The notes under the pieces were generated by a model, which saw only the letters and a list, made by a program, of their open reading frames with translations, was not told the origin of the DNA and searched no databases. A program made the position numbers and the translations under genes. A stretch of DNA of 64,000 bases from Minisyncoccia bacterium (lineage in GTDB: Bacteria > Patescibacteriota > Minisyncoccia > Phycocordibacterales > UBA918): the NCBI GenBank assembly GCA_041738755.1, contig JBGSPE010000011.1:6658-70657 (forward strand). The letters are read 5' to 3'. Positions 24,930 to 59,304 of this stretch are shown in pieces. Numbering within the stretch: position 1 is the stretch's first letter; each line of letters begins with the position of its first letter.

Positions 24930-25468
24930 AAAGCCAAAAAATCTTTTATATAAGATTCGTAATCATTGAAATCAAGATAGTCATGCGTATCACCCTCGGT
25001 TGAAACAATGGTGAAGTAGCTACCATATTGTTGTAGCTTTGCGACTGTAAAATCATGACTCGTTGTTGGATCATCGATATTATGAAACGCCATACTCGGA
25101 ACAGTAAATTCTTGAAGAGCTGACCAATCTTCTGCATAGATATCCTTGGCGGCCATATCAAGTGGCATCCCAAAGAGCACGGCCTTTTTTGGATCTATTG
25201 CTCCGTCTGCAAACGCTTCTAAAGCCAATAAAGAACCTACCGACTTTGCAAACACATACCAGTCCCCTGCTTCATTTTGGTTATCATCAACGGTGATTTC
25301 GATTTTTTCAATCTCAGCTTCAAAATCAATTCTCTGCTCACCGGTTGACCAATGATTATAGTTTTGGACATACACGACATCAAACCAATCGAGGAAATAT
25401 TGCGCACACGCCTCACCCCACGCTTTGTTACGTTGGCTATTACCCGGCAGTATGAGGAGTTTTTTCAT
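24926..25468 (-). CDS. small alpha/beta hydrolase (YdeN/RBBP9-like serine hydrolase)
   Basis: 180 aa with a nucleophile elbow FAKSVGS and the fold pattern MKKLLILPG. Confidence 0.4.
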   Translation of the reverse strand: MKKLLILPGNSQRNKAWGEACAQYFLDWFDVVYVQNYNHWSTGEQRIDFEAEIEKIEITVDDNQNEAGDWYVFAKSVGSLLALEAFADGAIDPKKAVLFGMPLDMAAKDIYAEDWSALQEFTVPSMAFHNIDDPTTSHDFTVAKLQQYGSYFTIVSTEGDTHDYLDFNDYESYIKDFLAL

Positions 25469-26897
25469 ATGGTGACTCTAATCTGGTAAAGAGATTGTCT
25501 GGTTTTTTATTGGCTCGGACGGCGGCTCTGATAAGCGTACTTGTCTCCGGCATGCTCGGCAATAAAAGACGACCAATGTGAAGCAGGTCCGCCCGTAATT
25601 CTCCAATGATAATTTTTGCTTCTGCTTCATTTGTTTTAATGAGCTTGAATGGTTCAGTCTTGGTAATTTTTTCATCAAGTGCTTGTACCAAAGACCAAAT
25701 ATGATCCATTGCGGGTTGAAATGAAATCATATCCGGCACATCAAGTGTTGTAGGGTCAAGAAGCGGAAAATCTTCGGGCTCTAGGTGTGACTCAGCCATT
25801 TTCATTATGCGTGCTGTGAGATTACCTAAGCCATTGACGAGATTGGCCGTGTAGTACTCGTCCATCTTTTCCCAGGTAAGATCAGAGTCATCAAAGGGAT
25901 GAACGTGCCGTAAGAGGATATATCGAGTAGCATCCGTCCCGTAACGAGCCACCATCTCACTCGGGGAAATAACGTTACCAATGCTCTTGCTCATCTTCTG
26001 TCCGCCGCTATTAATGAAGCCGTGATAGTAGATAGTGTCAGTTGGCTTGATATCAGCTGAGAATAACATGGCTTGCCAGATAATTGACTGGAAGCGGACC
26101 TGATCTTTACCAGCCAATTGCAGGGTTTCCCCCTCATGCCAGAATTTCTTAAACTGTCCCTCCTCTTCTGGCCAACCGAGCGTCGAGATGTAATTGGTCA
26201 GAGCATCAAACCACACGTACATAACATGATCGTCATCGCCCGGTACGGGTACTCCCCAATCCATTCGGCTCTTTTGGCGGGAGATGCTCAAGTCTTCAAG
26301 CCCACCTTTTACAAAATCTATTGCCCACTGCCGTTGCCACTCTGGTGTTATAGAAGATTCTTTGGCGTAGAGTTCGAGCAATGCGTCTTCATAGTTTGAA
26401 AGACGGAAGAAATAATTCTCTTCTTCCAGTTCTACTGGCTCCATAGTCGGATGATTAGGGCACCGACCGTCAACCAAGTCACTCTCGCGTAAAAACATCT
26501 CATCACCAACACAGTAAAGACCTTTAAAGGTTTTTTTGTAGATGTCACACTTCTCCAAGCAGCGTTGCCAAATAGCTTGGGCAGCTGCTTTGTGCCCAGC
26601 ATCGGTAGTCCGAATAAAGTTGTCGTAGGAGAGATTCAAACCATCTTTGAGGGTGCTAAACGTGCTCGCGTAATAATCGACATATGCTTGTCTATCCTTC
26701 CCTTCAGCATCCGCTTTTTGGGCTACTTTTTGACCATGCTCATCAGTCCCCGTATTGAAAAAAACCTCGTGTCCCATCAGGCGATAGTAGCGCGCCAAGG
26801 TATCAGCCTGAACTATCTCAAGCGCAAACCCAATATGTGGCTCGGCATTCACATACGGCAAGGTAGTGGATATATACTTGGCTTTTTTGGCTTCCAT
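25440..26897 (-). CDS. metG: methionyl-tRNA synthetase (minimal form)
   Basis: P-Y-V-N-A-E-P-H-I-G-F (HIGH region), the KMSKS motif QKMSKSIGN, and YVWFDAL. The likely start is the Met of MEAKKAKY. Confidence 0.9.
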   Translation of the reverse strand: MEAKKAKYISTTLPYVNAEPHIGFALEIVQADTLARYYRLMGHEVFFNTGTDEHGQKVAQKADAEGKDRQAYVDYYASTFSTLKDGLNLSYDNFIRTTDAGHKAAAQAIWQRCLEKCDIYKKTFKGLYCVGDEMFLRESDLVDGRCPNHPTMEPVELEEENYFFRLSNYEDALLELYAKESSITPEWQRQWAIDFVKGGLEDLSISRQKSRMDWGVPVPGDDDHVMYVWFDALTNYISTLGWPEEEGQFKKFWHEGETLQLAGKDQVRFQSIIWQAMLFSADIKPTDTIYYHGFINSGGQKMSKSIGNVISPSEMVARYGTDATRYILLRHVHPFDDSDLTWEKMDEYYTANLVNGLGNLTARIMKMAESHLEPEDFPLLDPTTLDVPDMISFQPAMDHIWSLVQALDEKITKTEPFKLIKTNEAEAKIIIGELRADLLHIGRLLLPSMPETSTLIRAAVRANKKPDNLFTRLESPYEKTPHTAG

Positions 26898-27019
26898 ATC
26901 GCTCACTGTATCACAATTACACAAGGTTATACATCAGTTCTTTATAATTCGTGAAGTATTGATTTTATTGTAAATAATGTTACCGTAAAAGCCGTCCAAT
27001 TACAGTGAGGAGAAAGTTC

Positions 27020-28371: not shown

Positions 28372-30045
28372 TTATTGTAATTTCGTGATGAGTTCAGTGA
28401 TGGCAACTCGCTCTTGCTCTCCGGTATCACGATGTCGAATGGTAACCGTGTCCAAAAGTTCTGGAGCATCTTGGCCAAGCGTTTCAAAATCAATTACCAC
28501 GCAGTACGGTGTACCGATTTCATCTTGGCGACGATACCGCTTGCCCACATTGCTGTTATCGTCCCAAATGACGTTACCAAACTCTTTCTTTAACATCATG
28601 AAGACTTCCCTGGCTTTCGCAACCAGCTCTGGCTTATTCTTTAGAAGCGGTGAAACCGCTACCCGGTACGGGGCCAAGTGGCTAGGTAACTTCAAGTAGG
28701 TACGGATTTCGCCGTTCATTTCATCTTCTGTATAGGCTTCGCAGAGGACTGCCGTAAAAGCTCGACCAACTCCGAACGATGGCTCCAGGACATGTGGAAT
28801 AAATGGTGCACCTTCAGCCGGTACGTACCGCATTTTTGTACCACTGGCTTCTTCGTGACTCTTAAGGTCATGATCAGTCCGGTAGGCAAATCCCGCCAAC
28901 TCATCAAAGCCCTTCCCTGGATAATTATATTCAAAATCAATTGTCCGCTTACTGTAGTGAGCGAGGTCGTTTTCTGGTACTTCGTACTCACGAATATTGT
29001 CCGGAGACAAACCAAGATGGTTATGCCAAGCAATAATATCCTGTCGAAGTTTTTCAAATTCAGCTTCCCACTCACTTTCGTTTACGAAATATTCAATTTC
29101 CATTTGTTCAAATTCTCGAACGCGGAAAAGAAATTCACGTGGAGCGATTTCGTTCCGAAAGGCCTTCCCTATCTGAGCAATCCCAAATGGTATTTTGGGT
29201 GACATTGAATCAACAACGTTTTTGAAGTTTACAAAAATCCCCTGAGCTGTTTCTGGTCGAAGGTAAGACTTTATGTCTCCCTGAGCTCCGACTTGGGTCT
29301 CAAACATTAAGTTGAAATCTTTTGGTGCAGTCCATGCTTTTTTACCACAATTTTTTGTTTTACAAGTAACTAAATGTCTCAAATAGTGATAAACGGCTGG
29401 TTGATGGAAATGGCTAAAATCAGATAAGAATTTATTCAGTACTTGTTCAAAATTATGAGTCGGATGTACCTGGTTCTCAATAATTAAGTCGAAATCAACA
29501 TCAAGGTCTCTAAATAAATCGACCATCATTTTGCTAAAAAATAATTTAAAATTATTTTGTTCAGCAATATCATATGATGTTTTTTCGATATATCCCCCAT
29601 ATATACCTAGCTGCATGTCTTCGTTATATCCAATGAACGAATCGAGTGAACTTAGAGATTGAAAAAATTCTTTAAATTGAGATTGTATTTCCGATTGTAT
29701 CTCTTGTAATTTTTTCTCATCTTCAATTAAATGATCGGCACGATATCTAGTATTACAATTCTGACAGATAACTATAGGGTCAGAAAATCCAGCCCCCGTA
29801 TGTCCACTCGCTTCCCAGACTTTCTCATTCATTAAAATTGCCGCATCAAGTCCATACATATCTTCGCGACCATCAACAAACAATTTCCACCACTCGCTCT
29901 TAATTCGGTTATTGAGCGCTACGCCAAGGGGACCTAGGTCCCAGGTACCTTTCAGTCCTCCGTAGATTTCACTCCCTTGGAATACAAATCCCCGCCTTTT
30001 ACAAAGGGATACAATCTTCTCCATCTTATCGTCGTGTGTGCTCAT
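28372..30045 (-). CDS. glyQS: glycyl-tRNA synthetase (alpha2 dimeric type)
   Basis: N-terminus RRGFVFQGSEIYGG..GTWD.GPLG, class II motifs, and a Cys-containing insertion. 557 aa. Confidence 0.9.
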   Translation of the reverse strand: MSTHDDKMEKIVSLCKRRGFVFQGSEIYGGLKGTWDLGPLGVALNNRIKSEWWKLFVDGREDMYGLDAAILMNEKVWEASGHTGAGFSDPIVICQNCNTRYRADHLIEDEKKLQEIQSEIQSQFKEFFQSLSSLDSFIGYNEDMQLGIYGGYIEKTSYDIAEQNNFKLFFSKMMVDLFRDLDVDFDLIIENQVHPTHNFEQVLNKFLSDFSHFHQPAVYHYLRHLVTCKTKNCGKKAWTAPKDFNLMFETQVGAQGDIKSYLRPETAQGIFVNFKNVVDSMSPKIPFGIAQIGKAFRNEIAPREFLFRVREFEQMEIEYFVNESEWEAEFEKLRQDIIAWHNHLGLSPDNIREYEVPENDLAHYSKRTIDFEYNYPGKGFDELAGFAYRTDHDLKSHEEASGTKMRYVPAEGAPFIPHVLEPSFGVGRAFTAVLCEAYTEDEMNGEIRTYLKLPSHLAPYRVAVSPLLKNKPELVAKAREVFMMLKKEFGNVIWDDNSNVGKRYRRQDEIGTPYCVVIDFETLGQDAPELLDTVTIRHRDTGEQERVAITELITKLQ

Positions 30046-31990: not shown

Positions 31991-32569
31991 CTACAAATGA
32001 CTGGTTGAAACCGCTAGAGCAATCAGTTTATCAAGAACAGGCTCCAAACTTGTATCATGAATGAGCGCGATAGTAGCAGGTGAAACATCTTTGATTTCAT
32101 TCGGCACCAAGACTGAGTCAACGTAGCCCAAATCAGTGAGGATTTTTACCTGTAGTGACTTTTCGACCATTCCTCGGTGTGTCAGTTCACCTGACAGTAT
32201 TTGTAGTGATTCATAAATAAAATCAAACAACTGAGGAGTCGGTTCTTCACCAGAAAAGAACCGTCGCAGGACTCGAAACATACTTACAATACTGCCTCGA
32301 CTAGCTTTGTCCGTAGCTAGCGTGTAGAAATTTGTTTCAGCTTCAACACTGCCAATTTTCCAACCACTTTTACCGCGGACCAAAGACACTCGTATGTATG
32401 AGAAGTCCTGCATCGCAAACCGCTGCTTGCTTCGTTCTTCACGAATACTGCGCGCATCAGCAAAAAGCATCCCCGCTTCCCGGGTAAAGAGTAAGTAGGA
32501 ACGGTCTGCAGTATTGCGATTAAACGTACCGCAGACGAGAGCGTGCGTAATGTACGTCTGGTACGACAT
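31991..32569 (-). CDS. recO: DNA repair protein RecO
   Basis: 192 aa with an N-terminal OB-fold pattern (YITHALVCGTFNRNTADRSYLLFTREAGM) and RecO-like length and architecture. The family assignment comes from motif resemblance only. Confidence 0.5.
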   Translation of the reverse strand: MSYQTYITHALVCGTFNRNTADRSYLLFTREAGMLFADARSIREERSKQRFAMQDFSYIRVSLVRGKSGWKIGSVEAETNFYTLATDKASRGSIVSMFRVLRRFFSGEEPTPQLFDFIYESLQILSGELTHRGMVEKSLQVKILTDLGYVDSVLVPNEIKDVSPATIALIHDTSLEPVLDKLIALAVSTSHL

Positions 32570-35500
32570 TAGACTTTTTTAATAGTAAAGATGAATTGCT
32601 CAGTATCGGTAGCGACTACTTCTCCGTCAGTGTCAGCGAAGCTAAGCTCGACCGCACCAACCGTCTTCGTAAGGAGAGATGCGAAGCTTTCAATGTTGGC
32701 CCGGCCAGCATCGGTCGCTTGCACCGTGAGGATAATCTGGTCCTGTGGGGCCAGACCTTCAGCCTTTCGTCTTCCCTGCACTGCTCGCATGAGTTCGCGT
32801 ACATTTCCTTCCGCAATAAGTTCTGGAGTAAGGGTGGTATCAATCATTACACCTTCTCCCACGATATAGTCTTTAGCGTTTAGTTCGTCGAGAATGATTG
32901 ATTGCATGGCGTCACTAATCTGAGGTCCAGTAACACTTGCAATTGGCTGTCGTACTTTAATATTTGATTTTGTTCGAGCTTCAAGTGCTGCAGTTACAAT
33001 TTCACGAGTAGCTACCATATCTACAATTATCTCCATTGGAACATCGGCAACTTCAGGCCATCGGCCGAGATGGACACTTTCTCCATCAGTCTCCTCTTTC
33101 ACCGCTTGGAAGAGGAACTCGGCATAAAATGGCATGGCCGGCGCCATCACGAGTGCTGTAGTGCGAAGGACATACCGAAGTGTTGAGAGTGCATGTGTCT
33201 TATCAGCTTCATTGTCTCCCTTAAAGCGGTCGCGAGAGCGACGCAAGTACCAAACCGAAAGATCATCAATAAACTCAGTCAGTGGTCTCGTCGCTTTATC
33301 AAACTCATAGTTTTCGTAACCAGCAGTTGTGGTATTCACGAGCTCTTGTAGTCGCGCCAAAATCCACCGATCCAGAACATGAGTTGAGTGGGCACTTCCC
33401 TTTGTACCATCAGCAAACATTTCATACATCTGGAGGACATTATGAAGTCGACCAATATTCTTCCGCTGCAACTCAAGTACTTCCTTACCTGAGAAATTAA
33501 GGTCTTCTCCCCGAACAACCGGTGAAGAGAGGAGGTACATTCTCATCGCATCAGCTCCAGCTTGATTAGCGAGTTCCATCGGGTCAGGATAGTTCTTGAG
33601 TGACTTACTCATCTTCTTCCCGTCCTCAGCCAACACGAGACCGTTTACTGCTACGTTTTTAAACGGACTCGTACCAAACAAGGCCACACCGAGTACCATC
33701 AGTGAGTAAAACCACCCTCGGGTTTGATCAAGTCCCTCAGCGATAAATTCAGCTGGGAATCTTGATTCCAAGAAACGTTCTTTATCTTTAAAGGGATAGT
33801 GATGTTGCCCATACGGCATTGAGCCACTTTCAAACCAACAATCAAATACATCTGGTACGCGCTCTAACTGTGTATCATTTTCAAACAAGATAACGTCATC
33901 GATATATGGTCGATGGAGGTCGAGCTCATACAAGTCATTGTGTGGTAGTGGTGTGAAGTTGAGCGTTCGCACCTCGGCGTTTTTGATATACGTCTTGAAG
34001 GGGTCAAGACATGCCTCTGTCGCAAAACCATTGACCACACACTCAAGCATGGTAAGCGGGTCACCGTGGGACACAATCAATATCTTTTTACCTTGATAGG
34101 TCTTCTCAATATCGTAGAGAAATTCCCCCATTCGCACCTTTACCTCATTGAGGGATTCAAGGCCAGCCACTGACTTCGTAAATTCTTCAAGTGGGTTTGC
34201 GTAATGTTGGATTTTTTCTTGATTTGGCTTGCCTTCGAGCTCACCCATCCCAGACTCTCGAATACGAGCATCTTCAATCAAGACAGAATCAGGTAAACCA
34301 AGCAACTCCGCAACCATGGCAGCAGTCGTTTTTGCTCGCGGCAACGGTGAATAAAAAATATAATCAATGTCAGACGGAAGACTTGCGACCGCATCTTTGA
34401 TTTGTTCCATTCCCTTTTCAGTCACCGGGTTGTCTTTAGTGGCGTCACCGTTGAGGAAGCCTTCAACATTTGAGCGGGCTTCAGCGTGACGCATCACGAG
34501 ATACTCATTACCACTTTTTGGTACATACGTCTTCAACTCATCGACTGAACCAATGACTACAAACGACTGTAACTCAGGATTTCGCCAGACCGGAAGTGGT
34601 GCCCCCCAGTATCGTTGCCGTGATACCGCCCAGTCTCGAGCGCCCTCAAGCCACTTTCCAAAGCGGTTGGTTCCGACGTGTTCCGGTACCCACTTCACTT
34701 CAGCATTAGCCTTTAGTAAGTCATCTTTGATTTTTGGTACGTTCACAAACCACGACGTAGTCGCGTAGTTTAGAAGTGGTGTCTCACACCGCCAACAGTG
34801 CGGGTAGCTGTGTGAAATATTTTCTTTCTTGAAAATCTTCCCGACTTTTTGCAGGGCTCGTAAGACTTCAATATCAGTGTCTTTGTGATCCACCCCAGCC
34901 CCTTCATCATCTTTTGGCTTTACCAACCGACCAGCAAACTCCGTTATAAATGACTTGAAGTGTCCTGCCTCATCAACATGGTGAAAGATTGGGACGCCGT
35001 GCTCTTGTGCGAGCTTCATGTCGTCGTCACCATACGCTGGCGCAATATGCACCGCACCAGTACCGTCCTCTCCTACTTCAACATAATCAGCGTGGCGAAT
35101 AACCCAACCATTCTTTGCTCCTTCAAGCTGTTGCTCCTCTATGTAGGTAAATGGTGGCTGATAGCGGGTACCGACCAGACTACTTCCCATCAACTCTTCA
35201 ACTACTTCGTGAGCAAGATCACCCAGTTGTGCAAGCCGTCCTTTAGCTAAGATGAAATACTCGTTCTCAATCTTTACCTTTACATACGTAATTTCGTTAT
35301 GGACCGCGGCAGCGATATTCCCTGGTAGTGTCCATGGGGTCGTGGTCCAAACCAAAAGGCTCGTATCAGTGACACTCCCTCCCTCATCCAACAGTGGCAG
35401 CTTCACGGTAACGGCAATATCTTTAATATCTTTGTAGCCTTGATTCACCTCAAAGTTTGAGAGGGTTGTTCCGCAACGTGGACACAGGTGCATACTTTTG

Positions 35501-36072
35501 AAACCTTCAAACACGAGACCTTTCTCATGGAGTGACTTAAATACCGACCACACACTTTCGGTGTAGCTACTGTCCATGGTCTTGTAGTCGTTCTGCATAT
35601 CAACAAACCGTCCCATCCGAGGGATAATTTCTCGCCAATCATCAGCGTAGCGTAAAACTGCACCGCGAGCACGTTCATTAAAATTCTTGACGCCATAGGC
35701 TTCAATATCACGCTTGGTTCCTAGTCCCAATTCTTTTTCAATCAGGTTCTCAAGCGGTAGTCCGTGACAATCCCACCCCCACTTCCGTTCCACTCGATAC
35801 CCATTCATGGTCTTGTACCGAGGAATCGCATCCTTCATCGTCCCGGCTAAAATATGCCCATAGTGAGGCAACCCGGTCGCAAACGGCGGACCATCATAAA
35901 AAACAAACTCGCCCTTGGGCTCCACTCCAGCTGGAGTAGCCACTGTTTTATTAAAAATATCGTTATCCTGCCAAAATTGTAGTATCGCCTCTTCACGCTG
36001 TGCGACATCGCTTTTGGGGACTTCGTTTAATACTTCTACCGTGTCGTTTTCACGACCTTTCATTAGACTCAT
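32569..36072 (-). CDS. ileS: isoleucyl-tRNA synthetase with an inserted histidine-phosphatase (PGAM-like) domain
   Basis: HIGH region PPFATGLPHYGHIL, WCISRQ-like WAVSRQRYWG, DLHRPYID, and KMSKS = KMSKSLKN. An extra domain of about 170-190 aa between PLPVW and DLHRPYID carries the RHAEARS, SPLPRAKTTA and IVSHGDPL motifs. Confidence 0.9.
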   Translation of the reverse strand: MSLMKGRENDTVEVLNEVPKSDVAQREEAILQFWQDNDIFNKTVATPAGVEPKGEFVFYDGPPFATGLPHYGHILAGTMKDAIPRYKTMNGYRVERKWGWDCHGLPLENLIEKELGLGTKRDIEAYGVKNFNERARGAVLRYADDWREIIPRMGRFVDMQNDYKTMDSSYTESVWSVFKSLHEKGLVFEGFKSMHLCPRCGTTLSNFEVNQGYKDIKDIAVTVKLPLLDEGGSVTDTSLLVWTTTPWTLPGNIAAAVHNEITYVKVKIENEYFILAKGRLAQLGDLAHEVVEELMGSSLVGTRYQPPFTYIEEQQLEGAKNGWVIRHADYVEVGEDGTGAVHIAPAYGDDDMKLAQEHGVPIFHHVDEAGHFKSFITEFAGRLVKPKDDEGAGVDHKDTDIEVLRALQKVGKIFKKENISHSYPHCWRCETPLLNYATTSWFVNVPKIKDDLLKANAEVKWVPEHVGTNRFGKWLEGARDWAVSRQRYWGAPLPVWRNPELQSFVVIGSVDELKTYVPKSGNEYLVMRHAEARSNVEGFLNGDATKDNPVTEKGMEQIKDAVASLPSDIDYIFYSPLPRAKTTAAMVAELLGLPDSVLIEDARIRESGMGELEGKPNQEKIQHYANPLEEFTKSVAGLESLNEVKVRMGEFLYDIEKTYQGKKILIVSHGDPLTMLECVVNGFATEACLDPFKTYIKNAEVRTLNFTPLPHNDLYELDLHRPYIDDVILFENDTQLERVPDVFDCWFESGSMPYGQHHYPFKDKERFLESRFPAEFIAEGLDQTRGWFYSLMVLGVALFGTSPFKNVAVNGLVLAEDGKKMSKSLKNYPDPMELANQAGADAMRMYLLSSPVVRGEDLNFSGKEVLELQRKNIGRLHNVLQMYEMFADGTKGSAHSTHVLDRWILARLQELVNTTTAGYENYEFDKATRPLTEFIDDLSVWYLRRSRDRFKGDNEADKTHALSTLRYVLRTTALVMAPAMPFYAEFLFQAVKEETDGESVHLGRWPEVADVPMEIIVDMVATREIVTAALEARTKSNIKVRQPIASVTGPQISDAMQSIILDELNAKDYIVGEGVMIDTTLTPELIAEGNVRELMRAVQGRRKAEGLAPQDQIILTVQATDAGRANIESFASLLTKTVGAVELSFADTDGEVVATDTEQFIFTIKKV

Positions 36073-36190
36073 ATGAAATTAATTATGTATATCAGACATG
36101 TATAAACGTGGCATATCAGGCCACGCTTTTGATAGTAACAAACTCTACCAAAAAGAAAAAGTCGCTGTTATGCGACTTTATTATCCTCTA

Positions 36191-36499
36191 TAAGGAGGGG
36201 TTCAGCTATTGAATGTCTTTCGAGCTTTCGGGAGCGGATTGGTGTCAGACCTCCCCCCTCGGTTAGGAGGGGGTTCAGCTATTGGTCTTGCGGAAGTGAA
36301 AGCAGGAAGAGGAGTGTCAGACCTCCCCCCTCGGTTAGGAGGGGGTTCAGCTATTAGATGTGCGCAAGCGCTGCTTGAAGCGGGAAGTGTCAGACCTCCC
36401 CCCTCGGTTAGGAGGGGGTTCAGCTATAACGTCGCGCCAGTGGTACTTGGTGGTGACAGTGTCAGACCTCCCCCCTCGGTTAGGAGGGGGTTCAGCTAT
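36191..36499 (-). CRISPR. CRISPR array: four 41-nt repeats (GTGTCAGACCTCCCCCCTCGGTTAGGAGGGGGTTCAGCTAT) plus one degenerate terminal repeat; spacers 31-32 nt
   Basis: Exact repeats at 36242-36282, 36314-36354, 36387-36427 and 36459-36499. A degenerate half-repeat lies at 36191-36209. The repeat has an internal 7-bp stem CCCCCTC/GAGGGGG. The minus-strand direction is inferred from the position of the degenerate (trailer) repeat and the cas genes. Confidence 0.85.
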
Positions 36500-36753
36500 A
36501 AGTGAGCGGGTAGGTTTTCCAAGGCTAGCTTGGCATCATCTGTGGGTGCTCATCCCCACAGCGGCGCTGACACGGCGCAAAAATAGAGACTTCACAACCC
36601 TCATTACAAGGGTTTCTGAATGCAATCCAGTTTCTCTACCGGTTGGAACCCTTTATGAGAAAAACATCACTGACTATAACTTTTTGCCAAGTGTTTTTCT
36701 CACTTATTTCAAAGACCAACTCAAGAGAAAATATACACTCCTATCTATTCTTG

Positions 36754-37527
36754 TCAAGTGCAACGAGAGTCGTGCCTCATTGGAAGTAGTGTGGGGGTAA
36801 ATACTTCTTTATGGTTCACCGCTTTTATAAATTTTGTAATCTGGAGATCCATATAATACTCGTAGGTATGACACTGCTTAAAATCACGAAGATAGTGCTT
36901 TTTCTGTAGCTGTTGATTGATTGCATGAAGTAGCTGAACTATATGCTCTTGGGTAAGTTTTTCGATTGGCTTTTTCTTCAAACGCAAAAATCGTAATACC
37001 TCAGTATCTACTACATCCGCTCGAAAAAGTTCAACGAGATCATATACTAGTGGCTTGCTCTTAGCTGTGCGTGGTTTATGCAATAATCCAATCGCGGCTG
37101 TTATGTCTCTTCGTTTAAGATTTTTACTAATCTTAACTGTAAGATGATGGTAGCCAATATCCAGCAGCTGATTTGTGACATCACTTCCTCGTGGTGCTCG
37201 ACTGGTAAACCTAGTCCAGGTTGGCAGTAGCGTACGGTAAACAGACCAAAATTGCTTAGCTGCTCTGGCTTCGTATAGTAAAATGTCTTGCATTGATGTA
37301 GGAGTACCTAGGATTGCAACTTCTCTTGGCATTTTATAGGCAGCCAACAGTGCTGAACGTTGGCGGATTTTGGTCTCAATGAGTACTACAGCACTTTTTA
37401 GTGCTAACGGTGATTGGGAGTATACAGACATCCGAGCTATCCACAAAGCATTTGTCATAGTATTAGCATAACAAAAAGGACGTTCGGTTGATACCGAACG
37501 TCCTTGAGCATTAAAGCAAAGTAGCAC
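36754..37527 (-). CDS. cas1: Cas1-like integrase lacking most of the N-terminal beta domain
   Basis: Cas1 catalytic-domain motifs are present: LYEARAAKQFW, NQLLDIGYHHL, and GLLHKPRTAKSKPLVYDLVELFRADVVD (GxLH...DLxExFR). Only about 30 aa precede the helical domain. The annotated start is a GTG, so the true start may be an internal Met (ARM-SVYS). Confidence 0.65.
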   Translation of the reverse strand: MLLCFNAQGRSVSTERPFCYANTMTNALWIARMSVYSQSPLALKSAVVLIETKIRQRSALLAAYKMPREVAILGTPTSMQDILLYEARAAKQFWSVYRTLLPTWTRFTSRAPRGSDVTNQLLDIGYHHLTVKISKNLKRRDITAAIGLLHKPRTAKSKPLVYDLVELFRADVVDTEVLRFLRLKKKPIEKLTQEHIVQLLHAINQQLQKKHYLRDFKQCHTYEYYMDLQITKFIKAVNHKEVFTPTLLPMRHDSRCT

Positions 37528-38878
37528 TCTCAGGCGCCCTGAGAAATTGATCCCGCAACGCTTTGGCTACAAAGATTTTTTTCTCATCCCCCAAGAGGGT
37601 ACTTGGTACTTCACCAGAAAAGGCCATACGTCTGACACTGCCTCCATGCTCTTTGGCTTTTTCTTTGAGCCAAGAGACCAGATACGCCAATGAACCCGTA
37701 TTTTGAGCCGCCCAGTTGGCACCAAGCGACCCACCACGTTCTGGCTTACTAGCATCAGCTAGCTTACCCGGCTTACTTCGGACAACCAGCTCAGTCACTA
37801 CAAAGTGAATTCCATGACCAGAAGCAACGGTCTTGGTACTACTTTGGAGACCGTACCCATGCTTACACTTGAATCGCCGTTCTGCTTTACTAAGCGGACG
37901 CTCCACTTCGGTGCGAAGCAGCCCATTTGCAACCACTCGTCGACGATTCATCTGCTGTTGTTCACCAAGGTGACGAAACAGAAACCGCCACGCAAGAGAA
38001 AGCTCTTCATGCTTTCCTGAACCTTTTGCTAACTTATCCTCAGCTACCAGTTGCCTGGTACGAACCGACAACGCTTCCAAGTGGGGCTTGAGCGAAATAT
38101 CTGAACGCCGAAATGGTATGACGACTTCACCATGCGGAGAAACCACCCCAATAGACGATGCTCCCAGTGCGACATACACTGCCGTATCAGGATCAAAGTC
38201 TTGAGTTATCGGCTGTTCAATTTCATACGCCAGCGATAAGGTAAGATGACCGGGTCGCTTAAGCCACGAATCACTGCGGGCAATAGTGAATTTCGCAAAC
38301 CGAAGAGCTGACTGGAGTTGTTCCATCTGGTAGTGGGCGACCTTAAAACAAAGTGTCCCACCAAAGGATCGCGGCGCCAATTGCACCATCCCACCCTTAA
38401 GGCGAAATGATGCTCCGAGAGCTCCCAGAATCACCTGAAAACGATCTTCAGAACATATCTTTGGCGATCGAGCATCAACATCACCCTTCTTCCGCAATTC
38501 GAAAAAGCTTTTGAAGGCTCCTTCGACCTGCCGAAACGTTTCGAGTACCCAATTAGTTGGTATTTTTGCTCGAAACAATCCAGCGCTCTCGTCCGCTGGA
38601 CGCTGTTCATCTTTGAACCGTGTATAGCAATCGAAGGCAGTGAGGAAACCCTTCACGTCCTTCTGTCTTTCATCATTGGACTTGGCTTCTTTGTACGCCG
38701 TGTACTGTTGGTACTGCCACTCCAGAGCGAGATTGTAATATTCTCGCAATCCATCGCTGATACGGTACAAAAGTGACTCTTGTTCTTTAGTAAGAGACAG
38801 TGGCCACTTCTGAGTGCGATGCATGATTGCCCGTTTTTGTTCGGCGGACTTCTGTTTAGCTGTTTGTGTTTGTGCCAT
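37511..38878 (-). CDS. TnpB/Cas12-like RuvC-fold protein (RuvC-I Asp replaced by Ala; Zn-finger/RuvC-III region absent)
   Basis: The N-terminus WPLSLTKEQESLLYRISDGLREYYNLALEW matches the TnpB/OrfB signature (RLyPT.eQ...L...fG..R.vyN). VYVALGASSIGVVSPHGEVV aligns to RuvC-I (vGiDlG...LS.G) but with A in place of D. VVTELVV is a RuvC-II Glu candidate, followed by W...LAYLVSWLKEKAKEHGG (w..l.YKa..G). No CxxC pairs are present. Strong SD AGGAGGTG upstream. Confidence 0.55.
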   Translation of the reverse strand: MAQTQTAKQKSAEQKRAIMHRTQKWPLSLTKEQESLLYRISDGLREYYNLALEWQYQQYTAYKEAKSNDERQKDVKGFLTAFDCYTRFKDEQRPADESAGLFRAKIPTNWVLETFRQVEGAFKSFFELRKKGDVDARSPKICSEDRFQVILGALGASFRLKGGMVQLAPRSFGGTLCFKVAHYQMEQLQSALRFAKFTIARSDSWLKRPGHLTLSLAYEIEQPITQDFDPDTAVYVALGASSIGVVSPHGEVVIPFRRSDISLKPHLEALSVRTRQLVAEDKLAKGSGKHEELSLAWRFLFRHLGEQQQMNRRRVVANGLLRTEVERPLSKAERRFKCKHGYGLQSSTKTVASGHGIHFVVTELVVRSKPGKLADASKPERGGSLGANWAAQNTGSLAYLVSWLKEKAKEHGGSVRRMAFSGEVPSTLLGDEKKIFVAKALRDQFLRAPESATLL

Positions 38879-38949: not shown

Positions 38950-40650
38950 CTACATCCGCTCTGGAGCCTTGATACCAAGCGTCCACAATCCATTTTTAAG
39001 TGTAGTGCCAACGAGCTTAGTGACAGCTGCCTTATATGGTGCGTACTTGTCATTACTATCAGCAATTTTCTCTACTGCATAGAAGCTATTGAACGCTCCA
39101 GCCAATTCTGTTAGATAGGTCGCCACTTTGTGTGGGGCACGTTCAGTCAACGCATTTTCAACTACACTTGGGAATCGTAATACGAGTTTTTCTACCTCGT
39201 ACGCGGTAGAAGGTATCGTGGTGAGATCTGGATATACCAAAGCGGCTGCAGCTTTTTCAAGTACTGAATTAATTCTTGCATACGTATACTGTAAGTACGG
39301 ACCTGAATCACCTTCAAATGAGAGGGCTTGGTCCTTATCAAAAATACTATCTTGCAAAATACTACCGCGAAGCGTCGAATACTTAATTGCAGCAATCGCC
39401 ACCGCTTCAGCCACTTCGTTGTCAACTACGGTTCCACTTTCTTTCATTTTTTCTTCAGCTGCTTGTTTCACTTCAGTGATAAAATCAATCGCCGAAATCA
39501 CATCTCCGGTGCGAGAGGACATTTTTCCGGTCGTTAACCGAACCATGCCGTGTCCAATATGTTCTGTTTTTGGAGCCAAGTCGGGGTACACTTCTTTCAT
39601 CGCACATAAAAGCACCTTGAAATATTCATTGATTTCATTGGCGGTTGAAATGATGGAGAGATCATATCCGCCAAACCGCTCAGCTTTTAGTTTTGCAAGA
39701 GCTAGTTCTTTGGCTTCGTAGGTAGGAAGTACTTCTTTATTTAGAAATACACGGGTATGAAGTCCGCGGGCTTCCCCATCAAAAATTCGAGCACCATCGC
39801 TTTCTGGAAAAATGTCTGGGTTATCAAGAACTAATGCTTTTCCATGTGGGCCTGCTTCACTTTCAAAAAAGTACTCATCAAACTGCGTATCAACCATTGC
39901 GTAGATGGTTTCAAAATATTGTAACGAGACGGTACGCCCTAAGTCATACAATTCATTAATAATTTCGTCTTCTCGGCTATAGACTTTTTTGTTGATTTCA
40001 CGAATAGCGAGAGCTGCTGACTCATCTGCTTTGTAGGTAGTGGCACCAAGCGCGTACGCTTGACCCAATGTTTTTGGAGTGATGGTATCGGAAGTGAGAC
40101 CAAGCTGTTGTATTCCCCACAGCGCGTGAGCTACGTGCAAGCCAACATCACCTTGGTAATTAACCCTGAAGGTTTCAGCCCCATTCATCATAAACAAGCG
40201 GGCAATACTCTCTCCTACCGCATTGGTAAATAGGTGTCCAATGTGAAATTCTTTAAACGGATTCGGATCAGTGTATTCAACCAAAACTTTTTTACCACTC
40301 CATGATTCATTGCTCCCGAATCGGGGGTGGGTCAATGACTCTTGTAATTGTTCTGTATGATACTCACGATTCAGAGTAAAATTAATGAACCCTGGACCAG
40401 CGACGATAACGCTTGCTAGTTGCGGTAACTGTTTTGCTTTCAGTAACTCTACAATTTCTTCAGCGACTACTTTTGGTGCCAGACCTCGCTTGCCGGCAAG
40501 AACCATCGCTACGTTTGTAAAATAGTCCGCTTCGGTATTTTTATCAGTCGGATAATCGACCACAAACGAAACTCCCTCGTGTCCTTGGGCAGCTAGAATT
40601 TCTTTTAACGCGAACGTTAGTGTCTCTTTCATTGCTCGTACAATACCCAA
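38950..40650 (-). CDS. argS: arginyl-tRNA synthetase
   Basis: HIGH motif FHIGHLFT, DALR anticodon-binding C-terminus, KMSKS-variant GKMSSRTG. 566 aa. Confidence 0.9.
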   Translation of the reverse strand: MGIVRAMKETLTFALKEILAAQGHEGVSFVVDYPTDKNTEADYFTNVAMVLAGKRGLAPKVVAEEIVELLKAKQLPQLASVIVAGPGFINFTLNREYHTEQLQESLTHPRFGSNESWSGKKVLVEYTDPNPFKEFHIGHLFTNAVGESIARLFMMNGAETFRVNYQGDVGLHVAHALWGIQQLGLTSDTITPKTLGQAYALGATTYKADESAALAIREINKKVYSREDEIINELYDLGRTVSLQYFETIYAMVDTQFDEYFFESEAGPHGKALVLDNPDIFPESDGARIFDGEARGLHTRVFLNKEVLPTYEAKELALAKLKAERFGGYDLSIISTANEINEYFKVLLCAMKEVYPDLAPKTEHIGHGMVRLTTGKMSSRTGDVISAIDFITEVKQAAEEKMKESGTVVDNEVAEAVAIAAIKYSTLRGSILQDSIFDKDQALSFEGDSGPYLQYTYARINSVLEKAAAALVYPDLTTIPSTAYEVEKLVLRFPSVVENALTERAPHKVATYLTELAGAFNSFYAVEKIADSNDKYAPYKAAVTKLVGTTLKNGLWTLGIKAPERM

Positions 40651-53847: not shown

Positions 53848-55536
53848 TTACTTCTTACTCGCTTCCTGTTCTTGCAACTTCTTGCGCACCATTTGTTGGG
53901 CTGCATTCATAGAGTGCTGATAGTAGAGACTCTTGATGCCTTGCTTCCACGCTTGGATATACAACTGGTTGATATCCTTCACTGGTGTATCAGGTGCCAC
54001 CATGATGTTGAGTGACTGACCTTGGTCAATGTATTGCTGGCGGTCGGCCGCTTGTTCAATAATCTTGCTTTGGTCGATTTCTGAGAAGGTTCGGAACACC
54101 GCTCGCTCATTATCAGAAAGGAAATCGAGGTGCTGAACTGAACCATCATTGTCTCGAATACTATCCCAGGTGACTTTGTCATCCTTTCCTTTTGAAGCCA
54201 AGAGCGCTTGCAAGGTTGGGTTTTTAATCGTCACCTTCATCTTCGCAACGTCTTTGACGTAGCAGTTTGACCAGATTGGTTCAATACCTTGTGAGACCTG
54301 ACCGAGAATAAAGGCTGAAGACGTGGTTGGTGCAATCGCCATAAGTGTACTGTTGCGACGACCATAGCCCTTGAGAACCTCTGGTTCTCCAAGCTCAGTT
54401 GCCAGTCGCTTTGACTCTTCTAGTGCCTTGGTATGGATAGTTGAGAATACTTCTGAGTTCAGCGTAGCCCCCTCATCACTTTCAAAGGCTAGCTCTTTAG
54501 CCTGCAAGAGTGAGTGGTAGCCAAGGACACCGAGACCGAGAGCGCGGTTGGCTTTCGCGAAGTTGTACGCTCGTGACATGAAGTCAAAGGCTCGACGCTT
54601 TTCTTCATTTTCATGATCTCGCATCGCTTCGAGCTTCACAATGAAGTCTTCCATCACAGCATCAAGGAAGGCGGTCATAGTTTCTACCAAGTCGGTATCT
54701 TTCCATGCATCATAGTGGAGCAAGTTGATTGAAGAGAGACAACACACAAATGACCAGTCAGCCTTGCTTGGAAGCATGATCTCGCTACACATGTTACTGG
54801 CGTAGATAGTGAGATTCTGATCTTTGTAGGCGTCAACAGTATTTTTATTGGCCGTGTCATTGAACATGATGTATGGGTAACCCATTTCACCACGTCGTTG
54901 AATAATTCGAGCCCAAATCTTTCGCTTGGCTTCATCGCCCGCAATCATACTCTCCATCCACTCATCCCCTACCGTTACCCCGTGCGTAAGCTTTTGGATT
55001 GGATTTCCTTCAGTTCCAATATCAAGGAACTCCATGACGTCTGGGTGCTCAGCTGGGAGATACGGTGAGAAGTGCCCGCGACGAACTGACCCTTGGCTTA
55101 CCACATTGATAAGGGTTTCAAACAGCTGCATGAAGTGTACCGAACCAGACGAGTGTCCATTTCCATCTGAAATTCCTGCTCCTCGCTCACGTACGGCTCC
55201 GAAGTAGCCTGAGCAACCTCCGCCGTACTTACTCATCATCCCAACTTCGGCGTTCGTAAAGAGAATACTCCCCATATTGTCATCAACGTACGACCCAAAA
55301 CAACTAATTGGGAGGCCTTTGTTAATACCAAAGTTTGACCACACTGGTGAAGCCAGTGAAATCCAGCCCTTTGACATGTAGTCAACGAACTTATCAGCGA
55401 AGCCTGGGCGGTTTAAAAATGTTTCCGCAGCTTTAGCTATAACGGTAATTCGGTCTTCGGCGGTTTGGCCTTCATTCAAATATCCTCGGGCTAGAAACGC
55501 GCGACTGTTATCGTTAAGCCAATACCATGGTTCCAT
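53848..55536 (-). CDS. nrdA: ribonucleotide reductase class I catalytic (alpha) subunit, short form without an ATP-cone
   Basis: The NMCSEI active-site motif, the APTTSSA loop, and the C-terminal SLYY tyrosine pair. 562 aa. Confidence 0.8.
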   Translation of the reverse strand: MEPWYWLNDNSRAFLARGYLNEGQTAEDRITVIAKAAETFLNRPGFADKFVDYMSKGWISLASPVWSNFGINKGLPISCFGSYVDDNMGSILFTNAEVGMMSKYGGGCSGYFGAVRERGAGISDGNGHSSGSVHFMQLFETLINVVSQGSVRRGHFSPYLPAEHPDVMEFLDIGTEGNPIQKLTHGVTVGDEWMESMIAGDEAKRKIWARIIQRRGEMGYPYIMFNDTANKNTVDAYKDQNLTIYASNMCSEIMLPSKADWSFVCCLSSINLLHYDAWKDTDLVETMTAFLDAVMEDFIVKLEAMRDHENEEKRRAFDFMSRAYNFAKANRALGLGVLGYHSLLQAKELAFESDEGATLNSEVFSTIHTKALEESKRLATELGEPEVLKGYGRRNSTLMAIAPTTSSAFILGQVSQGIEPIWSNCYVKDVAKMKVTIKNPTLQALLASKGKDDKVTWDSIRDNDGSVQHLDFLSDNERAVFRTFSEIDQSKIIEQAADRQQYIDQGQSLNIMVAPDTPVKDINQLYIQAWKQGIKSLYYQHSMNAAQQMVRKKLQEQEASKK

Positions 55537-55569
55537 ATACTTTCTTTCTGTTAGGCGTTGTTAAGTTTT

Positions 55570-56883
55570 TTAGAAGAGGTCGTCACTTGTGACACTTGAT
55601 GATCGTTTGTTGTAGTTGATTGATCGCTTGTGGAAGAAGTCGACGTGCTTGGTAGCAATAACTTCGTTATCAAACCAGTCTGTTTCCTCAAGGAGAGCGT
55701 CACTCACTTGGAAGATACGCGGCATACCAATCGCTGCGAGTGAATTATTGAACCGGTGTTTGATGAACTCCTTCACGTTAGCGGCTGGAAGGAAACTCAA
55801 TTCCCCTGCTTCATAAATCCAATCTACCACTTTGCTTTCAGCTTCAAATGCTTCGATACACGCTTGTTCAATCATAGCTTTACATTCATCATCAAACCAT
55901 TCTGGGTGTTCGCTCTTGATGATATTAATCACATCAATCCCAAACATACCATGGAGATTTTCTTCTTTTGAAGTCGCTTCAACTGCGTTACTAATACCTT
56001 TGAAGATATTTCGGTGCTTGTTGAATGACATGATAATCAAGAACTGTGAGAACAGTGAGACGTGCTCAACAAAAAGTGAGAAGAGCATGACTGACTTGAA
56101 GTACTCACGATTGTCTTGGGTACGAGATAGTTCACTGACCTTATCAAGGTAATCCATCCGTTCTTGAATAACGGGAATATTTTTGATGTTCTTGAATTCA
56201 TTATTGAGTCCAAGAATTTCAAGCAAGTGTGAGTAGGCGTCAGTGTGACGAACTTCTGACTCAGCAAAGGTCGCTCCGACTGCTCCAATCTCAGCCTTTG
56301 GCATCTTCTTGTAGATATCACCCCAGAAGCTCTTTACTGACACTTCAATCTGAGCAATCGCAAGCATGGCATTCTTGATAGCACTTCTCTCAACGTCGTT
56401 TACGTTGACGTGAAAATCCTGTACGTCAGATGTGTAGTTGAACTCGGTGTGGACCCAGTATGAGTGTCGAATAGCGTTTGTGTATTCGTAGAGATCAGGA
56501 TATTCGTATGGCTTGAGGTGCGCTCGCTTGGCGAAGATGTCTCGTTCTCGGAGTTTCTTTCGTTCGTTTCGGTAAATGATGTAAGTCTTGGCCGTAACAT
56601 ACAAATCCTTTTCCATGAGGGCTTGTTCTACCAAGTCTTGGATTTCTTCAACAGCTGGACTTCCATCAATACATTTACGAGCAATCGGGTCTTCTGGAGA
56701 GGCGGTACCAGCCTGCACACACATAGCGACCACTTTTTGGTGAGCCAGCTCAGCCACTTCAATTGCGACTGAACGATCTCCTTCACCGGTTTCAGCAAGA
56801 GCTTTCGCTACAGCGTTTTCAATCTTGGTGATATCAAACGGCTTGACTGAGCCGTCACGCTTGCGAATGGTTTCAATTTTCAT
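55570..56883 (-). CDS. nrdB: ribonucleotide reductase radical-generating (beta) subunit fused to an N-terminal ATP-cone
   Basis: The N-terminus IRKRDGSVKPFDITKIENAVAKA is an ATP-cone. The remainder is a ferritin-like R2 with two E..H iron ligand motifs (ESEVRHTDAY; EENLHGMFG). Confidence 0.75.
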   Translation of the reverse strand: MKIETIRKRDGSVKPFDITKIENAVAKALAETGEGDRSVAIEVAELAHQKVVAMCVQAGTASPEDPIARKCIDGSPAVEEIQDLVEQALMEKDLYVTAKTYIIYRNERKKLRERDIFAKRAHLKPYEYPDLYEYTNAIRHSYWVHTEFNYTSDVQDFHVNVNDVERSAIKNAMLAIAQIEVSVKSFWGDIYKKMPKAEIGAVGATFAESEVRHTDAYSHLLEILGLNNEFKNIKNIPVIQERMDYLDKVSELSRTQDNREYFKSVMLFSLFVEHVSLFSQFLIIMSFNKHRNIFKGISNAVEATSKEENLHGMFGIDVINIIKSEHPEWFDDECKAMIEQACIEAFEAESKVVDWIYEAGELSFLPAANVKEFIKHRFNNSLAAIGMPRIFQVSDALLEETDWFDNEVIATKHVDFFHKRSINYNKRSSSVTSDDLF

Positions 56884-59088: not shown

Positions 59089-59161
59089 GGCGGCTATAGT
59101 ATAGCGGTTAGTGCATCGGTTTGTGGTACCGAAAGTTCGGGTTCGATTCCCGGTAGCCGCC
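59089..59161 (+). tRNA. tRNA-His (anticodon GTG) with G-1
   Basis: 8-bp acceptor GGCGGCTA/TAGCCGCC including G-1:C73. Anticodon stem TCGGT/ACCGA with loop TTGTGGT. T-arm GTTCGGGTTCGATTCCCGG. Confidence 0.8.
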
Positions 59162-59304
59162 CTAATGCCCTTGCCTCGCAAGGGAACAATCTAAATAAAG
59201 ATAATTTGGTTCAACTACGTTGGGTTATTTTAGTGCCTATTGTCCGTAGGGGAACCAGAAATGTTTTGAAGTCTTCCCACATGGTGCACACCGATTTTTT
59301 AAAT

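Follow-up and report, generated by a model that had tools for sequence, protein, structure and literature searches.

A histidine-phosphatase domain embedded in the isoleucyl-tRNA synthetase of a Minisyncoccia bacterium and its relatives in the Candidate Phyla Radiation

The isoleucyl-tRNA synthetase (IleRS) of a Minisyncoccia bacterium carries, within its catalytic body, what appears from sequence and a structural model to be a complete histidine-phosphatase domain. The gene, ileS, was analyzed in a stretch of 64,000 nucleotides (the window; positions 6,658 to 70,657 of the forward strand of contig JBGSPE010000011.1, GenBank assembly GCA_041738755.1). It occupies 32569..36072 on the minus (-) strand, as do all parts of the gene described below, and encodes a type-2 IleRS of 1167 aa that is recognized by TIGR00392, by Pfam and by structural matches. 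The inserted domain (His_Phos_1) lies at 33937..34515, corresponding to aa 520-712, and is supported by profile, conservation and fold. Over wide sections of the Candidate Phyla Radiation (CPR) almost every IleRS has the domain, which has there also moved to other positions, been duplicated and, in one relative, given way to an analogous phosphatase. The polypeptide is predicted to be bifunctional, and both its synthetase and the catalytic apparatus of its histidine phosphatase are intact.

A preliminary description of this DNA, made from its letters alone, had placed a histidine-phosphatase domain in IleRS at 33940-34515 (aa 520-711) and proposed a profile search for His_Phos_1. That search recovers the family, with Pfam PF00300 matching aa 525-706 at an E-value of 1.5e-27 and 96.9 bits against a cut-off of 21.7, over profile positions 2-181 of 194, a match that chance does not come near to explaining. 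The three motifs pointed out in the description are where it put them: LVMRHAEARSN at aa 525-535, SPLPRAKTTA at aa 575-584 and IVSHGDPL at aa 666-673. The catalytic core of the PF00300 superfamily (a nucleophilic His, two Arg, an acid/base Glu and a second His) is fully represented. The pair R528-H529 (34486..34491) belongs to the RHG motif, and H529 is the predicted phospho-accepting nucleophile; the Gly of this motif is Ala in the window protein and Gly in 81% of homologues. The second phosphate-binding Arg, R579 (34336..34338), falls in the SPLxR motif, and the second catalytic His, H669 (34066..34068), in the SHG motif. The predicted general acid/base, E606 (34255..34257), lies in RESGMGELEG, which we take to be the phosphatase-type pattern E..G..EG (E-x-x-x-G-x-x-E-G) and not the mutase-type ERHYG.

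Conservation is concentrated on these residues. Among 121 close homologues, in which the insert is 189-201 aa long, R528, H529, R579, E606 and H669 are conserved at 100%, and N535, T551, G554, S575, A584, E639 and R647 join them as invariant or nearly so. The interior of the insert is otherwise only about 44% identical among close homologues, compared with 70-77% for the IleRS body. The pattern extends well beyond these close relatives. In 115 diverged copies drawn from the three insertion sites described below, the six-residue pattern R-H-N-R-E-H, which includes the N535 equivalent, is intact in 96; the exceptions mostly have a change of the Asn alone or a Glu-to-Asp substitution, and a core residue is lost in five. 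The R528-H529 pair itself is kept in all but three of the 115 copies, and those three are partial or degenerate. The earlier suggestion that the module is catalytically intact therefore holds as far as the full set of predicted active-site residues, invariant across close homologues, can indicate.

The fold agrees with the profile match. An AlphaFold2 (AF2) model of the fragment aa 478-745, comprising the domain and its flanks, has a pLDDT of 91.4 and a pTM of 0.87 and forms a single rigid unit. The top Foldseek matches of this model are all His_Phos enzymes, found with a probability of 1.00 and TMt up to 0.77. The best of them are phosphomonoesterases of about 200 aa, namely PspA (4ij5/4ij6, E 2e-12, TMt up to 0.77), the mycobacterial hydrolase 6s2q and a riboflavin-pathway histidine-family phosphatase (9mmh), followed by PhoE (1h2e), TIGAR, CobC (6e4b) and GpgP Rv2419c. 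The best PDB sequence matches of the insert are the same enzymes. The phosphatases of about 200 aa reach TMt values of 0.75-0.77, as against about 0.6 for the 250-aa mutases. The preliminary label "PGAM-like" thus stands for the superfamily and fails for the mutase, since both fold neighbors and motif place the domain on the phosphatase branch (PhoE/PspA/CobC-like). Taken together, the sequence and the model assign aa 520-712 to a complete branch-1 histidine-phosphatase domain of the small phosphomonoesterase type (PhoE/PspA/CobC-like), predicted to sit at the tip of the CP3 module. Every NCBIfam equivalog, including dPGM_arch, CobC, PspA and GpmB, scores far below its cut-off on the insert, and a substrate therefore cannot be transferred from the named relatives.

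The synthetase part is, judged by its motifs, complete, and keeps HIGH, KMSKS and the CP1 editing site. Across the whole protein, the isoleucine-tRNA ligase equivalog TIGR00392 reaches 857.5 bits, well above its cut-off of 621.4, which makes the protein a member. In Pfam, tRNA-synt_1 is split into two stretches with His_Phos_1 between them, the first stretch (aa 30-516) covering profile positions 2-266. The N-terminal part (34516..36072, aa 1-519) holds the first half of the Rossmann fold, the CP core, the CP1 editing domain and the first half of CP3, ending in ...IGSVDELKTYVPK. It includes the HIGH signature, here HYGH (35854..35865, aa 70-73; H70, G72 and H73 invariant in homologues), the Thr-rich CP1 editing-site motif TTTPWTLPGN (35317..35346, aa 243-252) and a second CP1 editing motif, GTGAVHIAPAYGDDD, both of these also invariant in homologues. 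The IleRS block RQRYWGAPLPVW (aa 485-496) precedes the insert, and DLHRPYIDDV (aa 718-727) follows it. The C-terminal part (32569..33936, aa 713-1167 plus the stop codon) contains the second half of CP3, the rest of the Rossmann fold, KMSKS with the stem-contact fold, the anticodon-binding domain (Anticodon_1, aa 901-1044) and the type-2 C-terminal domain (DUF5915, aa 1074-1166). The KMSKS signature itself, found by motif search and conservation, is at 33601..33615 (aa 820-824). HYGH, KMSKS, the CP1 motifs, the anticodon-binding domain and DUF5915 are all invariant, or nearly so, among homologues. A full-length AF2 model is of low confidence (pLDDT 74.9, pTM 0.57); its best PDB matches are the type-2 IleRS enzymes 8c8w (Priestia megaterium IleRS2), 8wnd (yeast), 7d5c and 1ile (Thermus thermophilus).

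The chance that the architecture is an artefact is practically negligible. The insert is in frame within a single long continuous reading frame (32569..36072), just as the preliminary description of a 1167-aa protein had it. GC content is uniform across ileS, at 0.44-0.50. The same protein, bar the called start, is encoded by the independent Logan assembly SRR28170465, whose product, of 1164 aa, is called from the second in-frame Met and so lacks the first 3 residues of the 1167-aa open reading frame (ORF); the public gene call likewise starts 3 codons downstream and yields 1164 aa. Together with hundreds of homologues from many samples that carry the domain, these observations rule out a frameshifted gene pair and the chimeric misassembly of ileS with a PGAM gene that had been named as a possible refutation. 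An intein, of which the first description had also seen no signature, is excluded as well: there is no intein or Hint match in Pfam, the whole insert is accounted for by His_Phos_1, and the junction residues are wrong, with PHN followed by Asp or Asn and not by Cys, Ser or Thr. The P-H-N-D junction within aa 706-717 (33922-33957) superficially resembles the C-terminal His-Asn of an intein, and is probably a docking linker.

The linkers on both sides of the domain are themselves conserved. Upstream is VPKSGNEY (34501..34524, aa 517-524), and downstream is FTPLPHNDLYEL (33922..33957, aa 706-717), which leads into DLHRPYID. Over 226 proteins with the insert at this site, the upstream Asn is kept in 80% and the Tyr in 67%, and the downstream Pro, His and Asn in 82%, 61% and 77%, respectively; P710 and N712 reach 100% in close homologues. 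Across these 226 proteins, conservation is higher in the linkers (..PKSGN.Y.. and F.P.PHND.YEL) than inside the domain, a pattern that suggests a fixed docking geometry.

The survey of related IleRS that had been recommended finds the insertion widely within the CPR. All 120 of the closest clusters at 90% identity, which are 64-100% identical to the window protein, carry PF00133 together with PF00300; their named members are Candidatus Parcubacteria, Paceibacteria or Pacebacteria. Farther out, in an exhaustive search of representatives at 50% identity, the domain is present in about 105 of the best 150 matches, down to 36% identity to the query, and 118 of 120 IleRS of Gracilibacteria/Peregrinibacteria type carry His_Phos. 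A scan of GTDB genomes returned at least six insert-bearing loci; its pattern, RQRYWGAP, is also shared with leucyl-tRNA synthetase (LeuRS), and the scan is no proper taxonomic census. The IleRS body gives a neighbor-joining tree with a star-like shape, from which numbers of gains and losses cannot be read; the distribution can only be called patchy. Judged by comparison of sequences, the union of IleRS and phosphatase is ancient and has been kept by selection across Paceibacteria, Gracilibacteria, Peregrinibacteria and their allies.

Three separate loops of IleRS have received these domains, as became apparent when each phosphatase copy was mapped onto the numbering of the window protein (Q) and seven proteins were checked with Pfam. 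Site A, the one used in the window, lies in CP3 at Q ~515|715. In many relatives CP3 has a zinc knuckle with two CxxC pairs, and the site falls between the pairs; in the window protein these cysteines have been lost. Site B (Q ~888|898) is at the junction of the stem-contact fold and the anticodon-binding domain, in a loop that is empty in the window IleRS (33379..33414, aa ~887-898); it is the most frequent His_Phos site in IleRS of the Gracilibacteria/Peregrinibacteria type. Site C (Q ~760-773), ahead of the FPAEFIAEG strand, is likewise an empty loop in the window protein (33748..33798, aa ~759-775) and holds His_Phos, HAD, GNAT, P-loop kinase, Ser-hydrolase or DUF559 domains in relatives. 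In a further set of 110 IleRS, those with names come from Gracilibacteria, Peregrinibacteria and "Patescibacteria group"; there is one His_Phos copy in 73, two copies in 32, three in three and none in two, and all three sites are well populated. The embedded phosphatase is always internal and never terminal. The copies are about 30% identical to one another and 27-28% identical to free-standing outgroups, values too close to tell hopping from independent capture as the origin of the copies at sites B and C.

One relative is especially informative about what is being selected. The IleRS P0380 lacks His_Phos and instead carries a HAD_2 phosphatase at site C (aa 567-733), closest to phosphoglycolate phosphatase and PpaX and below the cut-offs for both. 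This looks like an apparent displacement of His_Phos by an analogous enzyme, and the arrival of a nonhomologous phosphatase speaks for selection on phosphatase chemistry.

Other enzyme domains have also been gathered into CPR IleRS, nearly always alongside His_Phos. Among 120 listed matches, there are about 13 with GNAT, five with a DUF559 nuclease-like domain, four with a P-loop kinase (AAA_33/zeta type), two with a serine hydrolase and one (P0346) with NUDIX, a domain that also occurs in P0236, a member of the representative set. A single IleRS can hold as many as four embedded enzyme domains in addition to His_Phos, and lengths reach 1859 aa; multidomain examples are P0195, P0346, P0236, P0182, P0350, P0381, P0223, P0208, P0179, P0276 and P0294. 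Some companions are lodged inside CP1, as with the NUDIX domain at aa 224-344 of P0346. The GNAT-bearing CPR proteins belong to a different lineage from the NCBIfam family NF040702 (ileS_w_GNAT), scoring 245-303 bits against its cut-off of 1999, and the window IleRS also falls outside it at 311 bits.

The association is specific to IleRS. A control search with a Peribacteria LeuRS query found none of 120 CPR LeuRS with PF00300, GNAT, NUDIX or kinase domains; these proteins are 794-1024 aa long, all but two of them 794-860. Two LeuRS of Peregrinibacteria type and about 1010-1024 aa, P0481 and P0499, have Y1_Tnp (PF01797, an IS200-like transposase) in their precomputed Pfam list, which may reflect in-frame insertion of a mobile element. 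Within the window, the methionyl-, glycyl- and arginyl-tRNA synthetases (MetRS, GlyRS and ArgRS) have neither unusual sizes nor unusual domains. Together with the LeuRS control, these enzymes rule out the idea that CPR bacteria insert domains into class Ia synthetases as a general habit. No free-standing His_Phos gene was found anywhere in the 64 kb of the window, nor in 80 retrieved loci, nor at a distance of up to 8 kb from the ileS of an insert-free relative. From this comparative evidence we infer selection for a phosphatase that is physically joined to IleRS, and to IleRS only.

The explanation we favor, with a chance that we would put a little short of even, is that the phosphatase works together with the synthetase on a phosphorylated ligand of IleRS. 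By analogy with the mechanism of its family, the domain would hydrolyze a phosphomonoester through a phospho-His529 intermediate, with R528, R579 and H669 holding the phosphate and E606 serving as the acid/base. The likeliest candidate substrates would be the acceptor end of tRNA(Ile), bearing a 2'/3'-phosphate or a pyrophosphate on A76, or an adenine-nucleotide by-product; the preliminary description had likewise suggested that the domain could act on a 2'/3'-phosphate, or else in editing or regulation. The role would be that of an end-healing or clean-up step that restores or protects a chargeable substrate, and not that of a glycolytic mutase. A phosphorylated IleRS ligand is favored on three grounds: the association is with IleRS alone, the placement is internal time after time, and the companions (NUDIX, the PNK-like kinase and GNAT) have a nucleotide- and RNA-end character.

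Several observations weigh against this explanation. Insert-free IleRS, one named Paceibacterota among them, have the canonical short loop at site A and a body that shares as much as 59-62% identity with that of insert-bearing proteins; with presence so patchy, the function must be dispensable or accessory in some lineages. A conserved basic surface of the kind that would bind RNA was not found on the domain, whose isoelectric point has a median of 6.4, a range of 4.8-10 and a value of 4.9 in the window protein. The surface evolves fast, with about 30% identity between copies, and this argues against a large conserved interface with RNA or protein. The nearest characterized relatives of the insert are all small-metabolite enzymes, and we know of no histidine phosphatase that acts on RNA ends. 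Finally, the full-length AF2 model (pTM 0.57) is too poor to say how H529 lies with respect to the KMSKS loop, the adenylate site and the end of the tRNA, or to relate sites A, B and C to each other in space.

Much of this would be expected if the domain were an autonomous passenger, the main rival explanation, which we consider unlikely and yet deserving of serious attention. An ordinary small-metabolite phosphatase (for phosphoserine, the riboflavin or cobalamin pathway, a sugar phosphate or a nucleotide) would have lodged in a permissive IleRS loop of an early CPR ancestor, with IleRS serving as a scaffold for expression and folding and no mechanistic link to aminoacylation. Small-metabolite relatives by sequence and by fold, the fast-evolving surface of variable charge and the patchy presence all fit such a history, and the companion GNAT, NUDIX, kinase and hydrolase domains are typical small housekeeping enzymes. 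Even the multiple sites and copies could stem from intragenic duplication. A mere passenger sits less easily with an association limited to IleRS, with placement that is always internal, in three loops and up to three copies, with a HAD phosphatase replacing it in the same slot, and with conserved site-A linkers. Nor does a free-standing copy turn up beside an insert-free ileS.

A broader version of the idea that phosphatase and synthetase act jointly sees CPR IleRS as the scaffold of a repair and counter-defense module for tRNA ends or adenylates, a proposal that we hold to be doubtful. One to three histidine (or HAD) phosphatases, with or without NUDIX, a PNK-like P-loop kinase, GNAT and a serine hydrolase, would strip phosphate, pyrophosphate or other toxin or antibiotic adducts from tRNA(Ile), Ile-tRNA or IleRS, on the very enzyme that uses the repaired substrate. 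Possible sources of such adducts are 3'-pyrophosphorylation of the toxSAS type and Hip-type kinases. If true, the module would represent a new functional class of synthetase-embedded enzymes.

It is considerably less probable that the domain is a built-in protein phosphatase that relieves IleRS itself of an inhibitory phosphate, such as one on the Ser of the KMSKS loop, in the manner of SixA, PGAM5 or Sts-1. HipA/HipT-type toxin kinases phosphorylate the KMSKS-loop Ser in GltX and TrpS. All three insertion sites are in the C-terminal half of the catalytic body and flank KMSKS in sequence, P-loop kinase domains are co-embedded in some relatives, and "SixA" is the IMG pipeline name for some copies. 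The search gave no evidence of a Hip-like kinase or a phosphosite, however, and the cap region typical of small-substrate enzymes is kept, unlike in SixA; the idea is entirely speculative.

There is slightly less again to be said for a noncatalytic appendage, a ligand sensor or structural module whose residues are kept for binding a regulatory phospho-ligand. Aminoacyl-tRNA synthetases (aaRSs) often gain regulatory domains, and such an appendage would fit that habit. It is made improbable by the full catalytic set, nucleophilic His and acid/base Glu included, in 96 of the 115 highly diverged copies, and by the HAD phosphatase replacement, which points to chemistry and not to binding.

Last among the functional alternatives, and very improbable, is that the glycolytic cofactor-dependent phosphoglycerate mutase of the organism was fused into IleRS. 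Its appeal comes from annotation: the best NCBIfam match of the segment is dPGM_arch (NF038349), and IMG gives one relative the name "bisphosphoglycerate-dependent phosphoglycerate mutase." Cofactor-dependent mutases have an ERHYG motif, an Arg pair, a Lys, a C-terminal tail and a length of about 250 aa. The insert has about 193 aa without the C-terminal tail, the phosphatase-type Glu motif in place of ERHYG and the phosphatases of about 200 aa as fold neighbors. It scores only 86.5 bits against 225 for NF038349, 45.7 against 261 for NF002901 and 33.5 against 316 for NF002339, placing it outside dPGM, GpmA and GpmB. Scores and fold neighbors both disfavor the mutase.

Comparison with the closest known systems helps to set out what is familiar and what is not. 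The small branch-1 phosphomonoesterases, including PspA (4ij5), PhoE/YhfR (1h2e, 1ebb), the alpha-ribazole-P phosphatase CobC (6e4b, 6nru), GpgP Rv2419c (4qih) and 9mmh, share with the insert the fold (Foldseek E 1e-12 to 1e-10, TMt 0.72-0.77), the size of about 200 aa, the R-H...R...E...H set and the E..G..EG and GES...R motifs. These enzymes are free-standing, whereas the insert is internal to an aaRS and only 20-27% identical to them. The host likewise resembles known type-2 IleRS (8c8w, 1ile, 8wnd) in architecture, HIGH, KMSKS, the CP1 editing domain and DUF5915, at about 30% identity. Where these have a CP3 loop of only ~10-20 aa between ...IGSxxEL... and DLHRxxID, the window IleRS has a 193-aa enzyme domain. 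The mupirocin-resistance models MupA/MupB (NF000257/NF000258) give 644-660 bits against a cut-off of 1900, marking the window IleRS as a relative and not a member.

Other precedents match in part. The Rv2228c-type RNase H/CobC-like acid phosphatase (NF005567) fuses a histidine phosphatase of the same branch to a nucleic-acid enzyme; that fusion is terminal and has a different partner, whereas the insert is internal and, at 62.6 bits, far below the cut-off of 326. Extra catalytic domains within synthetase loops are represented by CP1 of the Ile, Val and Leu enzymes, INS of ProRS and the NF040702 family. The inserted aaRS domains known so far act by deacylating mischarged tRNA; a phosphatase is not among them, while the window insert is of phosphatase type. 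Polynucleotide kinase-phosphatases of the T4 Pnkp type are RNA end-healing enzymes whose phosphatase is of the HAD superfamily. Some IleRS relatives are similar in joining an AAA_33-type P-loop kinase and a phosphatase in one tRNA-binding polypeptide, and one relative uses a HAD phosphatase. They differ from Pnkp in having no sequence relationship to it and no ligase partner seen, and RNA-end activity in IleRS is purely hypothetical.

Few enzymes have been studied as thoroughly as the aaRSs, whose added domains have been cataloged as editing, tRNA-binding or signaling modules. No description of a catalytic phosphatase inside an aaRS catalytic body was found in the searchable literature, in keeping with the first impression that the architecture was undescribed. 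IMG product names already reflect the fusion, as in [quoted passage not shown] and ".../bisphosphoglycerate-dependent phosphoglycerate mutase." The parts, type-2 IleRS and His_Phos branch 1, are known; to our knowledge the combination, an aaRS with an inserted catalytic domain of new chemistry, is new. It would imply that, in a major bacterial branch not yet culturable alone, isoleucine charging is linked to an unrecognized step of phosphate removal. The function is directly testable with one recombinant protein and one point mutant. The insertion is also a potential lineage marker for CPR genomes and offers a natural model of domain insertion at three permissive loops for aaRS engineering.

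The surroundings of ileS in the window have features of their own. The RecO-like gene at 31991-32569 overlaps the ileS stop codon, and the order ileS-recO is kept in the insert-free relative L082. Upstream of ileS, no T-box, riboswitch or other Rfam element and no tRNA-Ile was found. A stretch of 15 kb contains four aaRS genes, all in the same orientation, for MetRS (25440-26924), GlyRS (28372-30045), IleRS (32569-36072) and ArgRS (38950-40650).

A compact type V-F CRISPR-Cas locus (36170-38878) is situated directly upstream of ileS. Its array (~36170-36505) has at least five copies of a repeat of ~37-40 nt, GTGTCAGACCTCCCCCCTCGGTTAGGAGGGGGTTCAGCTAT, with a period of 72-73. It is followed by Cas1 (36754-37527, minus strand) and a miniature Cas12 of 455 aa (37511-38878, minus strand), which matches PADLOC Cas12_x1 at E 3e-85, has no Pfam match and matches TnpB weakly. 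Elsewhere in the window are genes for the large and small subunits of ribonucleotide reductase (53848-56883), the small-subunit ORF (55570-56883) having N-terminal ATP-cone repeats, an unusual location for an ATP-cone. A partial tRNA is at 1-70, and tRNA-His(GTG) is at 59090-59162.

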